UHGV virus genome: UHGV-0105321
DNA length: 24,512 nucleotides
Reading direction: 5' to 3' (one strand)
Source of the DNA: a virus
Shown here: positions 11,645 through 14,699 of the stretch, one piece after another
How positions within the stretch are numbered: position 1 is the stretch's first letter
Layout: every line of letters begins with the position of its first letter
Notes under the pieces: generated by a model
Seen by the model: the letters and a program-made list of their open reading frames with translations, nothing else
Database searches by the model: none
Told to the model about the DNA's origin: nothing
Translations under genes and position numbers: made by a program

Positions 11645-11842
11645 ATGGAAACCGTATTGCATGCACTGAAAGCGATGGGAAAAGCCAATTCTGTTGAACT
11701 GGCGGCGCGGCTTGATATCAGCCGTGAAGAAGTTCTCAACGAACTGTGGGAGCTCAAAAAAAATGGCGTTGTTGATAAAACGGGTCACACCTGGTTTCTG
11801 GCTGTCGAAGGTGAAGCCGGGGTACGGAGTATTCCCGTCTGA
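11645..11842 (+). CDS. Small winged-helix-like DNA-binding protein, 65 aa
   Basis: HTH-like segment [35 protein letters not shown] upstream of the ATG. Confidence 0.5.
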
Positions 11843-12106: not shown

Positions 12107-12781
12107 TCATATAGAGGCTGAATCTGATCTTTTTTGTTCACGTCTGGCTTCCACTATTGCAGGCAGAGTGAAGGCGTAGACTAAAAACATTTCGGTAAAA
12201 CTCAGGATCTGGCTTGCCTCAATTGGTGTGAAAACTTCATCTGTATGAACTGCTTTATTGGCATCAATTCGTACAATATGAGCCCATTCCTTCATCTGTT
12301 CAGTGATCAGGCCTTTTTTGTAAATCATCTGAATACGTTGCGACAGCGATTCTTTTCCTGCTTCATCGCCGAGCAGTTTTTTCGTGGAGATATCGAGGAC
12401 TCTGCGACAAAGAATAACCACTGTGTCGTACCGCCTCCTCTGTAAATCCTCTTTTGCCTCAACAAAAGTACGGTCTGCAACCGGGGGCGTATATTCTGGT
12501 GCGGTAATTTTTTTGACCACAGGATAGATCTTGCGGAAACGGTACTGGCTATTTCCTGAAATCAGAATATCGAGGTCTTTTTTCTGGCTTTCCGCCATGG
12601 GGCCGTGATAGTGGTCTGATGGGATTTCAACAATAGCAACACCTCCTCGATGACAACTTCTGCATACAAAAGCGACGTTAAAAAAAGGTGTTTTTTCAAT
12701 TTGTTTTTCGGCAAATGCCTCAATAACAGCTCGCTCTTTTAAACAGTGCGGGCATGTGATATCAAAGGAGACTAAACCCAT
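12107..12781 (-). CDS. Zinc-ribbon plus DUF4145-like protein, 224 aa, counter-oriented to the flanking rightward operon
   Basis: N-terminal CPHC...CRSCH; C-terminal half has the pattern I associate with DUF4145 (…EWAHIVRIDANKAVH…); GAGGAA ribosome-binding site before ATG 12779..12781. Confidence 0.7.
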   Translation of the reverse strand: MGLVSFDITCPHCLKERAVIEAFAEKQIEKTPFFNVAFVCRSCHRGGVAIVEIPSDHYHGPMAESQKKDLDILISGNSQYRFRKIYPVVKKITAPEYTPPVADRTFVEAKEDLQRRRYDTVVILCRRVLDISTKKLLGDEAGKESLSQRIQMIYKKGLITEQMKEWAHIVRIDANKAVHTDEVFTPIEASQILSFTEMFLVYAFTLPAIVEARREQKRSDSASI

Positions 12782-13025
12782 GGATATTCCTCGCGAAATT
12801 AAAGAAATTAACGAAATCATTGAGGTTACTGATCGCCCCGAGTTTACCCTCATGCGCCGTTATGAAACAGGAACCGACGAGCAAAAATACATCATGGTTG
12901 CAGCATTGGCTGTGATGGCGATAGAAAGGGAGCGAAGGGAAAAGGACGTAATGGTTATTCCTGCGAGAAATGATTCACCGGATTTGAGATGGCAGGAGCC
13001 GGAGTGGGATGTGGTAATCCGGTGA
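12780..13025 (+). CDS. Hypothetical small protein, 81 aa from ATG 12780
   Basis: AAGGAG 9 nt upstream of the ATG; its start codon overlaps the divergent start of the DUF4145-like gene at a CATG. Could be spurious. Confidence 0.3.
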   Translation: MDIPREIKEINEIIEVTDRPEFTLMRRYETGTDEQKYIMVAALAVMAIERERREKDVMVIPARNDSPDLRWQEPEWDVVIR

Positions 13026-13079
13026 TTGATATTTCTCTGGGGTAAAGCGCCGCCAGAATGACGGCGCGGTAGTGGAGAG

Positions 13080-13388
13080 TTAAACGAAGCGGATCTGGAG
13101 TTTTTTCCCTGTAGCACGGGCGAATTTTTTCAGTGTGGCAAATGATGGGCCGCTTGTACCTGATGCAAGATTGCTTTCCATTCTGGTTATCGCAGTCGCT
13201 TTTGTTCCCATACGTTCAGCAACTTCAGCCTGGGTTAAGCCAGCTTCTTTTCGTGCTGCCAGCATTTCATCAAGTAGTGCGAATTCATCGGCGATGGCGT
13301 CGTATTCTGCTTTTACTGCGGGGTTAGACAACATTTTTTCTACCATTTCATCGTGTGTCATGGTAGGTGGGGTACGTTTACCAGTCAT
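13080..13388 (-). CDS. HTH (XRE-like) antitoxin of a HigA/Gp48 type, 102 aa
   Basis: HTH-like LTQAEVAERMGTKATAITRMESN; overlaps the upstream toxin ORF by 11 nt; toxin-then-antitoxin order. Confidence 0.72.
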   Translation of the reverse strand: MTGKRTPPTMTHDEMVEKMLSNPAVKAEYDAIADEFALLDEMLAARKEAGLTQAEVAERMGTKATAITRMESNLASGTSGPSFATLKKFARATGKKLQIRFV

Positions 13389-13707
13389 GCTTAACCTCCT
13401 TCATTCTGGTTTCAGCTTTTCTAAGCTCGGCAGGTGGAGTTTTTTGCGTTTTCTTTACAAAGCTATGCAACATAATGATTCGCTTTCCTTTTAGCGTGCA
13501 GTAAAAAACACGCCCTATGCCTTCCGAGCCCTTAAGGCGGATTTCAAACAAACCGTCGCCAAATGCCTCTGTATGCGGGGAACCAAGATTAGCTCCGTAA
13601 ATACGCATTTTCTCCGTGTACCGAATGTACCGGGCTTGTAAGGTCTCAGGAAGAGAAAGGATCTCAGCTTCAACCTCGTCACTGTAGTATTCGATAATGT
13701 AGTTCAT
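13378..13707 (-). CDS. RelE/HigB-like (Gp49-like) toxin, about 109 aa from ATG 13707
   Basis: Size and sequence character (…FGDGLFEIRLKGSEGIGRVFYCTLKGKRIIMLHSFVKKTQKTPP…) typical of HigB/Gp49-family toxins paired with a downstream HTH; palindrome AACAAATTTGTT in the promoter region. Start codon uncertain (13707 or 13719). Confidence 0.68.
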   Translation of the reverse strand: MNYIIEYYSDEVEAEILSLPETLQARYIRYTEKMRIYGANLGSPHTEAFGDGLFEIRLKGSEGIGRVFYCTLKGKRIIMLHSFVKKTQKTPPAELRKAETRMKEVKHDW

Positions 13708-13839
13708 GAGAGTAAACATAACAAATTTGTTATATACATTCAAGGTATGTTGACGACAACACATATCCGGGATTATATTCTTCGCACGCCAGCAAAATCT
13801 GGCGTCGGGATTAGCACCCCGGATATCGAAACGGTGCAT

Positions 13840-13861
13840 AACCGCGCTGGCGGTTTTTTTA
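13840..13861 (+). terminator. Intrinsic terminator (stem AACCGC/GCGGTT, loop GCTG, then T7); tR2-like
   Basis: Short GC hairpin directly followed by TTTTTTT on the plus strand, upstream of the nin region. Confidence 0.5.
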
Positions 13862-14024
13862 TGCGCTAAGCACAGTCACATTCGCGATTTATGGCGGGCT
13901 GTGTGGGGGAGCCGAAAGGCTCGCCGGATGTTTCGACCGGTAGTGCTAACCCCGCACAGTTCGCCACCACGATGATTAGCACCTGAAGGTGGTGAGGTAA
14001 AAATTATCGAAACGCGAGGTCGTT

Positions 14025-14699
14025 ATGACTGTTCAAATCTCTGTCAAAAACCTTTCCCCTGTTACCTATAACCAGATTCCGGTAATCACAACTGAGTTGC
14101 TTGCCCGCCTTTATGGAACAGAAACAATCCGTATACAGCAGAATCACCATGAAAATAAATCTCGGTTTATTGAGGGAAAGCACTTCTTTAAAGCTGTTGG
14201 TGATGAACTCAGAAATTTGCGACTAGTTTTAAACGAGTCGCAAAATGAGGTGAAAATCTCTCCCAAAACCCGCTCGCTCATCCTCTGGACAGAACGAGGC
14301 GCAGCCCGCCACGCAAAAATGCTAGAAACCGATCAGGCGTGGGAAGTGTTCGAAAAACTGGAAGACTGCTATTTCAGCCAGGGAAAAACAGCACCAACCG
14401 AACAGCAGCCGCAGATTCAGCCACAATTCACAGCCGAAGAAATCATCCTCCTTTGCTACATGCAACTCTGGATGGAAAAAGCCCAGGACCTTAGCAAGCA
14501 GCTGTACCCCATAATGAAAGAGCTGAACTCCTCATACACGAACAAGCTGTATGACATTGCGTTTGAGACCATCTACATGGTGACGAAGAACAGAGACGCG
14601 CTACTAAGGGAGGTAACACGTCTCGACATGTCAAGTTCCGTTATCCAGCGGGCCATGCCAATGCTGAAAAGCCTGCGGGCAAGACAATTTGAATTCTGA
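14025..14699 (+). CDS. Hypothetical nin-region protein, 224 aa, possibly antirepressor-like
   Basis: Well-formed ORF followed by a terminator; the N-terminal region weakly resembles phage regulatory/antirepressor N-terminal domains by eye. Confidence 0.45.
   Translation: MTVQISVKNLSPVTYNQIPVITTELLARLYGTETIRIQQNHHENKSRFIEGKHFFKAVGDELRNLRLVLNESQNEVKISPKTRSLILWTERGAARHAKMLETDQAWEVFEKLEDCYFSQGKTAPTEQQPQIQPQFTAEEIILLCYMQLWMEKAQDLSKQLYPIMKELNSSYTNKLYDIAFETIYMVTKNRDALLREVTRLDMSSSVIQRAMPMLKSLRARQFEF

Follow-up and report, generated by a model that had tools for sequence, protein, structure and literature searches.

The two overlapping minus-strand genes at 13080–13707 of the window (the whole stretch of DNA analysed here, 24,512 nucleotides of UHGV virus genome UHGV-0105321) most likely form a self-contained type II toxin-antitoxin (TA) cassette, in which a Gp49/Tad-type HigB toxin is paired with an XRE-HTH antitoxin of the HigA/Ata kind, and which would repress its own transcription, express its toxin from a leaderless cistron and promote retention of the prophage that carries it. 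The cassette is a counter-oriented moron in a lambdoid E. coli prophage, with the replication genes to one side of it and the nin region to the other; TA pairs are frequent among prophage morons. In terms of class the pair is ordinary, belonging to the Gp49/HigB (Tad-Ata) group, and RefSeq and the record of phage PhiR5_2 already label it RelE/ParE or HigB/HigA. Our reading is based on protein family, fold and catalytic residues, on gene order, and on the conservation and covariation of the operator.

The toxin gene (13378..13707, minus strand, 109 aa, MNYIIEYY...KHDW, RelE/ParE superfamily) comes first and overlaps the antitoxin gene (13080..13388, minus strand, 102 aa) by 11 nt (13378–13388). 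Both sets of coordinates given in the earlier note were right, as were its HigB/RelE-like and HTH assignments, and the toxin-first order and overlap, which it had likened to HigBA/Gp49-Gp48 modules, are seen in the window's own ORFs. A longer toxin frame of 153 aa (13378..13839) was dropped since its upstream extension is not conserved among related loci; this extension is antisense to the isrK RNA gene, and one related locus (L006) has a stop codon immediately 5' of MNY. Toxin homologues are 107–111 aa long and the RefSeq annotation in strain G1/2 is exactly 330 nt, which, together with the unconserved extension, makes the 109-aa call correct. The 76- and 87-aa starts chosen by PGAP were likewise dropped for the window, given the length of the homologues, a Pfam match that already starts at residue 15, and the conservation of residues 1–33; in an alignment of 34 homologues Y8, L19 and P20 are invariant.

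The toxin scores 94.3 bits with Pfam Gp49 (PF05973; cutoff 23.9), over profile positions 2–90 of 90, and the same domain is present in all 120 homologues listed out of >2,300 found. Identity is 60–79% across phyla, from Enterobacterales to Nitrospirota. Gp49 was the only Pfam match at E ≤ 0.01, which sets the protein apart from the classical HigB family (Proteus/E. coli K-12), and its score of 21.9 bits against NCBIfam TIGR02683 (upstrm_HI1419 RelE/ParE toxin) is below the cutoff of 62.85. The AF2 model (pLDDT 85) runs through a strand, two helices, four strands and a helix, giving the RelE-like arrangement of an antiparallel beta-sheet packed on N-terminal helices, with an extra C-terminal helix. 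Foldseek placed 6AF3/6AF4 and 7AWK/7NBU first (TM 0.74–0.78; S. pneumoniae HigB 0.75–0.77 among the top matches), followed by RelE, YoeB and YafQ.

The residues expected of an RNase of this type are in place. Toxin E55, R57, R66, F83 and K85 align with E66, R68, R73, F90 and K92 of Streptococcus pneumoniae HigB, where mutagenesis has shown that R68, R73, F90 and K92 matter for RNase activity (PMC7984235). The spacing F83-x-K85-x-x-Q88-K89 equals that of F93/K95/Q98/K99 in Mycobacterium tuberculosis HigB-TAC (HigB1), a proven A-site mRNase that depends on the ribosome (PMC9098466). E55, R57, R66, F83, K85 and K89 are invariant in the 34 homologues; S. pneumoniae HigB D61 is not conserved in the window toxin, where the aligned residue is G50. 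We infer from homologues in which such activities have been assayed (PMC7984235, PMC9098466, PMC5906591) that the RelE-fold, Gp49/Tad-type HigB of the window would be toxic and ribosome-dependent.

The antitoxin matches Pfam HTH_3 (43.4 bits, cutoff 23) and phrog_1373, a transcriptional regulator (E = 2.7e-36). Its top PDB match is the HigA chain 6AF3_B (E = 0.0014), and that of the toxin, by sequence, is S. pneumoniae HigB 6AF3_A. One HigBA complex thus supplies the best PDB match of each protein. The Pfam matches likewise bear out both family assignments, and the possibility raised beforehand, that homology might place the proteins in unrelated families, falls away. In 70 of 71 related loci the toxin gene is succeeded by one that encodes an HTH partner of 89–109 aa, and the two overlap by 4–26 nt.

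A perfect palindrome just upstream of the toxin start had been proposed as a likely autoregulatory operator. The sequence in question, AACAAATTTGTT, is found exactly at 13720–13731 and is longer than had been described, extending to the perfect 16-mer ATAACAAATTTGTTAT at 13718–13733, with a TAACA-N4-TGTTA core at 13719–13732. This is the sole perfect 16-bp palindrome in the window, but its uniqueness is not significant, because 64 of 200 shuffled windows hold at least one (mean 0.36); perfect 12-mer palindromes number 6 against 5.7 expected. The significance of the palindrome lies in its conservation across related loci: the core recurs in 66 of 71, from several phyla; in 60 of these 66 the start codon is 10–11 nt away, and the farther-upstream flanks of the core-bearing loci are unrelated. 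The arm variants TAGCA/TGCTA and TACCA/TGGTA co-occur with altered recognition helices in the antitoxin, a covariation that comprises two or three independent changes only. Within the window, 13718–13733 is the only match to the predicted HigA site at ≤1 mismatch. Because the core is conserved, overlaps the -10 element and has arms that covary with the recognition helix, the 16-bp palindrome is very probably the autoregulatory operator, and comparison of loci thus lends the earlier proposal strong support. An operator for this cross-phylum HigBA subclade can now be defined as TAACA-N4-TGTTA overlapping the -10, and its natural variants, paired with changes in the recognition helix, offer a ready system for HTH-operator co-evolution.

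The candidate higBA promoter, read from the sequence, consists of a -35 element TTGAAT (13738..13743, minus strand) and a -10 element TATGTT (13715..13720, minus strand; 7 nt upstream of the toxin ATG) separated by 17 nt. The palindrome lies in this spacer and overlaps the -10, in keeping with its previously suggested place amid -35/-10-like elements: the first two bases of the -10 are the last two of the 14-bp core (13719–13732). The hexamers match the consensus at only 8 of 12 positions, which is why a generic promoter scan missed them. Variants from E. coli and Shigella retain the -35, reading either TTGAAT or TTGCGC. Of 66 related loci, 47 have a TTG placed 17 nt upstream of the -10, and 65 have TAnnnT in the -10 position, where it overlaps the right arm of the core. 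The distance between the -10 and the start codon is 6 or 7 nt in 60 of the 66 (41 and 19 loci, respectively); the related loci share an inherited promoter and genes and so do not count as independent samples. A Shine-Dalgarno 4-mer precedes 0 of 70 toxin starts vs 69 of 70 antitoxin starts. That of the window's antitoxin, AAGGAGG (13395..13401, minus strand), is located within the C-terminal MKE codons of the toxin.

This arrangement suggests that the toxin mRNA is leaderless and the toxin weakly translated, where leaderless translation is something we infer from spacing alone. The absence of a Shine-Dalgarno sequence at the toxin beside its presence at the antitoxin also suggests a way in which TA operons of reverse order may fix the ratio of their two proteins. 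Two points complicate the leaderless reading. A toxin start could be placed in 66 related genome loci, and in 28 of them it is GTG, a codon that initiates leaderless translation poorly in E. coli. In addition, in the copy on Acinetobacter baumannii plasmid p3ABAYE (66% identity) the start lies 27 nt downstream of the -10-like element, implying a leader of ~20 nt. This homologue was also considered as an experimentally studied relative and dropped, as the paper mentions neither AYE nor a mapped transcription start; M. tuberculosis higB1 was dropped as a leaderless precedent, its P1 being 51 nt upstream (PMC3968373). It may be that the toxin cistron is hard-wired as leaderless throughout this Gp49-HigBA subclade, with operator, -10 and start packed into ~30 bp at fixed spacing, no Shine-Dalgarno at the toxin, and the antitoxin Shine-Dalgarno embedded in conserved MKE codons, a generalisation towards which our doubt slightly outweighs our belief. 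If it is true, a leaderless toxin would be a general, sequence-encoded way for toxin-first operons to keep antitoxin in excess, which was called an open question in a study of A. baumannii HigBA (PMC5906591).

We suggest the following course of events. In the lysogen, the sigma-70 promoter (TTGAAT, 17 nt, TATGTT) would drive toxin and antitoxin as one operon. The toxin would act as a ribosome-dependent mRNA endonuclease cutting the A-site codon, and the antitoxin would bind and neutralise it. A dimer of the antitoxin, with or without the toxin as co-repressor, would sit on the 16-bp palindrome; the position of this site, in the spacer and over part of the -10, would make the operon self-repressing. 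The toxin cistron, beginning 6–7 nt past the -10 and devoid of a Shine-Dalgarno, would probably be leaderless or nearly so and poorly translated, and the strong AAGGAGG of the antitoxin would then yield an antitoxin excess despite the toxin gene being first. Loss of the cassette, or a block to its expression, would free the toxin, thus favouring retention of the prophage segment; the same release could abort infection by other phages.

Several readings of the same region compete with this one. One would put both ORFs and the palindrome down to chance in the A+T-rich sequence of an intergenic or moron region; it could draw on the frequency of 16-bp palindromes in shuffles of 24.5 kb and on the weakness of the promoter hexamers; with both proteins well above the Pfam gathering thresholds, the large number of toxin homologues, and the palindrome at the same position in loci whose farther-upstream flanks are unrelated, comparison of sequences has already refuted it, and we give it practically no credence. 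In a second reading the pair serves mainly to regulate transcription or to confer anti-addiction immunity; selection would act on the HTH protein, and the toxin, weak or silenced, would be mostly its co-repressor. Of the 12 complete E. coli genomes that carry the window allele, nine show a single-base difference within 69 nt spanning the toxin start. In the four sequences read, from three of these nine genomes and phage PhiR5_2, the difference changes ATG to ATA at the toxin start and leaves the remainder of the toxin ORF intact; ATA is probably present in all nine. Toxin expression may thus be dispensable. The exact antitoxin sequence is found on at least 1000 contigs vs 683 for the exact toxin, and M. 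tuberculosis HigB2 and HigB3, members of the Gp49-type family, are non-toxic (PMC9098466). However, the toxin ATG is intact in the window and in more distant variants, and the catalytic residues and indeed the whole toxin are conserved at the level of identity given above across phyla, which argues for selection on an active toxin. We regard this second reading as unlikely. Should the leaderless architecture be real, the ATG-to-ATA allele would amount to a one-step natural off-switch of the toxin.

A further reading joins the pair to its neighbour. The earlier note had described a roughly 1.7-kb counter-oriented island made of the TA pair and an adjacent DUF4145-like gene. The adjacent gene is real: at 12107..12781 (minus strand, 224 aa) it matches Pfam DUF4145 with 36.6 bits vs a cutoff of 23.1, and its product has a beta-rich N-terminal domain in the model, an N-terminal Cys4 zinc ribbon (C10, C13, C40 and C43, invariant in 31 homologues) and a C-terminal DUF4145/HEPN domain in which R171 and H179 are invariant. 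It is RAZR (PD-T7-4)-like in architecture, although the similarity to PD-T7-4 is marginal (PADLOC E = 0.0025; profile vs 9y9c E = 0.34). The 1.7 kb do not form a single counter-oriented block, since a plus-strand ORF of 81 aa (12780..13025; phrog_8371, E = 7.9e-56) lies in between; it has no Pfam match and is hypothetical in RefSeq and phage records. A G+C-rich hairpin at 13047..13067, between the convergent higA and plus-strand ORF, has an RNA fold of -19.1 kcal/mol (z = -4.9) and lacks a clean U-tract; the TA transcript probably ends there. The O157 locus with a different cassette shares most of the hairpin stretch (window 13048–13073).

On this reading, the TA pair and the DUF4145 gene would be one co-transcribed or co-regulated anti-phage island, with two RNases acting by abortive infection. 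The two modules are on the same strand, ~300 bp apart, and occur together in 19 complete E. coli genomes, and RAZR, whose architecture the neighbour has, is a proven abortive-infection RNase (PMC13017515). Yet RAZR acts as a single gene (PMC13017515), and the plus-strand ORF and strong hairpin separate the neighbour from the TA pair. Moreover, the TA pair occurs without the DUF4145 gene in other prophage contexts (L005–L007), the DUF4145 gene adjoins a ParD-type cassette in other strains, e.g. 2013C-4282, and no PADLOC model gave a meaningful full-length match to either TA protein. A joint island is quite improbable, and we conclude that adjacency is the only link between what are separate modules, the TA pair being the self-contained cassette set out at the beginning.

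Exchange of cassettes at this site is apparent in O157/Stx phages, where a different TA set is found between the same flanks, with junctions at ~13748 and ~13148. These positions indicate that promoter and operator travel with the TA genes. Immediately next to the TA promoter is an IsrK/C4 RNA unit. A promoter-like TTGACG-18-TATATT (13750..13779, plus strand; 10 of 12 matches in the promoter scan) lies back-to-back with the higBA promoter, and its predicted start at ~13786 is the 5' end of a match to the isrK sRNA and its terminator (13786..13860, plus strand; Rfam RF01394, 75.8 bits vs a gathering threshold of 50). Overlapping isrK is a c4-a1b1 match (13773–13825, plus strand; RF03163, 46.9 bits vs 46.7). 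The terminator scan placed the isrK terminator at 13840–13855 followed by a T-run; a previous candidate at 13840–13861 (plus strand), a tR2-like early-right terminator, was dropped because Rfam identifies it as the IsrK terminator and the unit has its own promoter at 13750–13779. A C4 antisense RNA follows at 13887..13971 (plus strand; RF01695, 75.1 bits vs a gathering threshold of 45), upstream of an ORF6N/antirepressor-like gene (14025–14699) with ORF6N and P22_AR_C domains. The locus is thus a swap site in lambdoid/Stx phages, beside a RAZR-like HEPN gene and an IsrK/C4-controlled antirepressor unit, which bears on prophage stability and on the annotation of defence hotspots in pathogenic E. 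coli.

The known systems closest to the window pair include the Tad-Ata, N15 gp49-gp48 and SXT modules (COG4679-COG5606), which also combine a PF05973 toxin, encoded first, with an XRE-HTH partner and are borne by mobile elements or prophages. The window toxin shares 43% identity, over 83% of its length, with N15 gp49, the protein on which the family was founded. Modules of the Tad-Ata type stabilise their own replicons, according to Dziewit et al. 2007 (cited through PMC2701414 and PMC5906591). The window pair differs from them in belonging to a distinct, tightly conserved subclade (60–79% identity) with its own TAACA-N4-TGTTA operator. S. pneumoniae HigBA (6AF3/6AF4) is the top PDB sequence match of both proteins and the top fold match of the toxin, including the extra C-terminal helix, although identity to the window pair is only ~20% and the system is chromosomal, whereas ours is prophage-borne. 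There, HigA and HigBA bind palindromes in their own promoter (PMC7984235), which holds four palindromes in place of the single 16-bp site seen here.

M. tuberculosis HigB1 (Rv1955, 7AWK/7NBU) is similar in fold (TM 0.76–0.78) and shares F-x-K-x-x-Q-K and the E/R residues, and in 7NBU it is ribosome-bound. The TAC system, however, needs a third gene, a SecB-like chaperone (PMC9098466), which has no counterpart at the window locus, and, unlike in the window, the higB1 promoters are ≥51 nt upstream and HigA1 binds over the -35 element (PMC3968373). Classical HigBA (Proteus vulgaris Rts1, E. coli K-12, Vibrio cholerae) shares the reverse gene order and likewise couples an HTH antitoxin to an mRNase of the RelE superfamily, but its toxin is of a different family (Foldseek E = 0.06–0.17, TM ~0.5 vs the window toxin; E = 0.08–0.17 for the P. 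vulgaris HigB structures). For the leaderless architecture suggested here, a precedent is provided by paaR2-paaA2-parE2 of the O157:H7 prophage CP-933P, likewise a TA system of a lambdoid E. coli prophage, whose first gene has been shown experimentally to be leaderless (PMC8630535). That system has three components, including an unrelated ParE-type toxin and antitoxin, is located in the immunity region, and its leaderless gene is the regulator. Lastly, the DUF4145 neighbour has its counterpart in RAZR (9y9c), with which it shares a Cys4 zinc ribbon joined to a DUF4145/HEPN domain, an R-x7-H motif (R146/H154 in RAZR, R171/H179 here) and a length of ~220 aa.

The toxin and antitoxin genes occupy two minus-strand ORFs, 13378..13707 (109 aa) and 13080..13388 (102 aa), which overlap by 11 nt with the toxin first, exactly as the earlier note had placed them. 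In profile searches the toxin matched Pfam Gp49 (PF05973) over the whole domain with 94.3 bits and its partner matched HTH_3 with 43.4 bits; when each protein was searched separately against PDB sequences, the top matches were chains A and B of the S. pneumoniae HigBA complex 6AF3, in support of the proposed TA families. In an AlphaFold2 model (pLDDT 85), the toxin folds into a RelE-type sheet with two helices at the N-terminus and one additional helix at the C-terminus, and it superposes best on S. pneumoniae HigB (TM 0.75-0.77), followed by a group of M. tuberculosis HigB1 structures including the ribosome-bound 7NBU (TM 0.76-0.78) and then by RelE, YoeB and YafQ. The classical Proteus/E. 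coli K-12 HigB was considered as an identity for the toxin and rejected, there being no match to its Pfam family and only weak structural similarity.

Residue equivalences, taken from a HMMER alignment and the numbering of PMC7984235, place E66, R68, R73, F90 and K92 of pneumococcal HigB at E55, R57, R66, F83 and K85 of the window toxin; R68, R73, F90 and K92 are important for RNase activity by mutagenesis (PMC7984235). The spacing of F83-x-K85-x-x-Q88-K89 is identical to that of F93/K95/Q98/K99 in M. tuberculosis HigB-TAC, which cleaves the A-site codon on the ribosome (PMC9098466). Across 34 homologues, E55, R57, R66, F83, K85 and K89 are invariant. A mechanical reading would extend the toxin ORF upstream as far as 13839 (153 aa). 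This extension was rejected: it is not conserved in variants, one of which (locus L006) has a stop codon directly before MNY, it runs antisense to the isrK RNA gene, and toxin homologues are only 107-111 aa long. In strain G1/2, RefSeq annotates exactly the 330-nt toxin gene.

The palindrome reported upstream of the toxin, AACAAATTTGTT, is present exactly at 13720-13731 and proved larger than claimed, lying inside the perfect 16-mer ATAACAAATTTGTTAT (13718-13733), the sole perfect palindrome of that length in the window. As 64 of 200 shuffled windows held at least one perfect 16-bp palindrome, one per 24.5 kb is not significant alone, and its meaning derives from conservation across related loci and not from rarity. 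Five E. coli and Shigella variants with differing flanks further upstream were aligned, and a wider set of 66 loci with a placeable toxin start (out of 80 fetched from other genera, spanning Betaproteobacteria, Nitrospirota, Acidobacteriota and Deltaproteobacteria) was examined, giving 71 loci in total. The 14-bp core TAACA-N4-TGTTA is present in 66 of the 71. In the window the palindrome lies in the 17-nt spacer of a predicted minus-strand promoter (-35 TTGAAT at 13738-13743, conserved in position across related loci; -10 TATGTT at 13715-13720) and overlaps its -10. The first two bases of a TAnnnT -10 hexamer are the last two of the core in 65/66 loci, and in 47/66 a TTG precedes the -10 at a distance of 17 nt.

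The arms of the core are changed symmetrically to TAGCA...TGCTA in three or four loci and to TACCA...TGGTA in one (L055, L070, L072, L082 and L067). Exactly these loci carry the antitoxin recognition helix GVS[AT]PVVSRLE or GSTAPAVSRLE in place of the usual GT[KQHR]A[PT]A[VI][AT]R[LM]E, a covariation that amounts to only two or three independent events. Arm changes tracking helix changes are what is predicted of a dimeric repressor acting at the site, and together with the conservation of the core they support the earlier operator proposal: the palindrome is very probably the autoregulatory operator of the antitoxin. A scan of the window revealed no second core site. We conclude that the main interpretation of the earlier note was borne out, and that the locus is a bona fide-looking Gp49/Tad-type HigBA cassette with a palindromic putative operator conserved across loci.

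The distance from the -10 hexamer to the toxin start codon is 6 nt in 41 loci and 7 nt in 19, the intervening bases being variable in sequence and constant in number; a Shine-Dalgarno 4-mer precedes the toxin start in 0/70 loci and the antitoxin start in 69/70, all of these loci being related by shared ancestry and thus not independent samples. In the window, the antitoxin Shine-Dalgarno sequence AAGGAGG (13395-13401, minus strand) lies in the codons for the conserved toxin residues MKE. The simplest reading of this arrangement is a probable leaderless toxin cistron, with transcription beginning at or adjacent to the toxin start codon. Counting against it is the GTG found at the toxin start position in 28 of 66 related loci, and in an Acinetobacter plasmid copy (66% identity) the -10-like element stands 27 nt ahead of the start codon, which implies a leader of ~20 nt. 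If the toxin cistron is indeed leaderless, the toxin would be translated inefficiently and the antitoxin efficiently via its own Shine-Dalgarno sequence, which would explain antitoxin excess in a toxin-first operon; how operons of this class maintain that excess has been stated as unknown (PMC5906591). Leaderless translation has been proven for paaR2, in a TA locus of an E. coli prophage (PMC8630535).

The toxin start codon (13705-13707) is polymorphic. Among 12 complete E. coli genomes with the window allele, G1/2, G6/7 and G8 match the window around the start, and the other nine differ by a single base within a 69-nt stretch around it. Three of the nine were read (L001, L008 and L010); in these, as in phage PhiR5_2 (L004), the ATG has become ATA in an otherwise intact toxin gene, for which PGAP places the start at an ATG further upstream (113 aa) or at M34 (76 aa). 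The window itself keeps an intact ATG. ATA is probably the derived state, since more distant variants retain ATG. If the message is leaderless, the change would switch off the toxin but spare the antitoxin. It may be a naturally occurring allele that silences the toxin.

As a lambdoid prophage, the window carries on its plus strand exo/bet/gam/recE, kil, a cI-like repressor, cro, cII, O-like and DnaC-like genes upstream of the TA pair; downstream of the pair come an ORF6N antirepressor-like gene, ninB, ninE, rusA, ninH, and genes for lysis and terminase. In O157:H7 (L002, 3001-4096) and many Stx phages, the flanks shared with the window enclose other genes, namely one for a ParD-family antitoxin, an ORF of 90 aa that belongs to no known family, and an HTH gene of the HigA family. 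Homology between window and O157 breaks at ~13748, just outside the -35, and at ~13148, and O157 retains the last 71 nt of a window-type antitoxin gene as a non-coding remnant (3679-3749). From these comparisons the TA pair is a cassette at an exchange site, and as the break lies just beyond the -35, promoter and putative operator travel with the genes. Elsewhere in the prophage, three close relatives (L001, L003 and L004) have ~790 bp that the window lacks at ~11816-11824, a deletion that joins the first ~57 codons of a DUF1627 gene to a remnant of a DUF977 (Ren-like/LygF) gene. Past the nin genes, the leader region of the late genes holds two tandem copies of the STnc100 sRNA family (RF02076; 17612-17805 and 18081-18289, plus strand; 139 and 130 bits).

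Beyond the higBA promoter, three plus-strand RNA elements exceed their Rfam gathering scores within the 320 bp that separate the start of the toxin gene from the ORF6N/P22_AR_C antirepressor-like gene (14025-14699): c4-a1b1 (13773-13825), the Hfq-binding sRNA isrK with its terminator (13786-13860) and C4 antisense RNA (13887-13971). A strong promoter-like site, TTGACG-18-TATATT (13750-13779, plus strand), implies a transcription start at ~13786, the 5' end of isrK, so that the isrK and higBA promoters would stand back-to-back, their -35 hexamers 6 bp apart. IsrK of Gifsy-1 governs how a downstream ORF and an antirepressor-like protein are translated (PMC4825925).

The accessory island proposed in the earlier note stood only in part: the neighbour is a DUF4145 gene by profile match (12107-12781, minus strand), but it stands outside the TA unit. 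Between them lie a plus-strand 81-aa ORF (12780-13025; phrog_8371, no Pfam match) and, where this ORF and the antitoxin gene converge, a G+C-rich 9-bp hairpin (13047-13067; -19.1 kcal/mol, z = -4.9) followed by no U-tract on either strand. Most of the hairpin stretch is common to the O157 locus, placing it in the phage backbone and not in the cassette. The ORF and the DUF4145 gene are divergent with starts overlapping by 2 nt, so that the promoter of each must sit inside the other. The two modules also occur separately, the TA pair without DUF4145 in P22-like and e14-like prophages, and the DUF4145 gene in 36 complete genomes of E. coli, in some of which the ParD-type cassette replaces the TA pair. 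The DUF4145 protein, with ~50 clusters of its family found in Enterobacterales, has a Cys4 zinc ribbon with invariant cysteines (C10, C13, C40, C43) and an invariant HEPN pair, R171-x7-H179. This architecture is common to RAZR (PD-T7-4), an RNase of the zinc-finger HEPN type, which forms assemblies around ring proteins of phages and causes infection to abort (PMC13017515); sequence similarity is marginal, and we therefore call the protein RAZR-like in architecture and not a member.

The exact toxin sequence occurs in 683 contigs and the exact antitoxin in at least 1000, RefSeq labelling them "type II toxin-antitoxin system RelE/ParE family toxin" and "helix-turn-helix domain-containing protein" and the PhiR5_2 record naming them HigB and HigA; our literature search found no experimental paper on this pair. 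It is thus already labelled in databases and belongs to a well-known kind of system. What is added to these labels is the family-wide putative operator, its covariation with the recognition helix, the toxin cistron that is probably leaderless, the ATA allele, and a site of cassette exchange with a RAZR-like gene on one side and an IsrK/C4 unit on the other. Among known systems, gp49 of phage N15, the founder of the family, shares 43% identity with the toxin, which falls in the Tad-Ata / COG4679-COG5606 class, described as RelE-like with the toxin gene always first (PMC2701414, PMC5906591).
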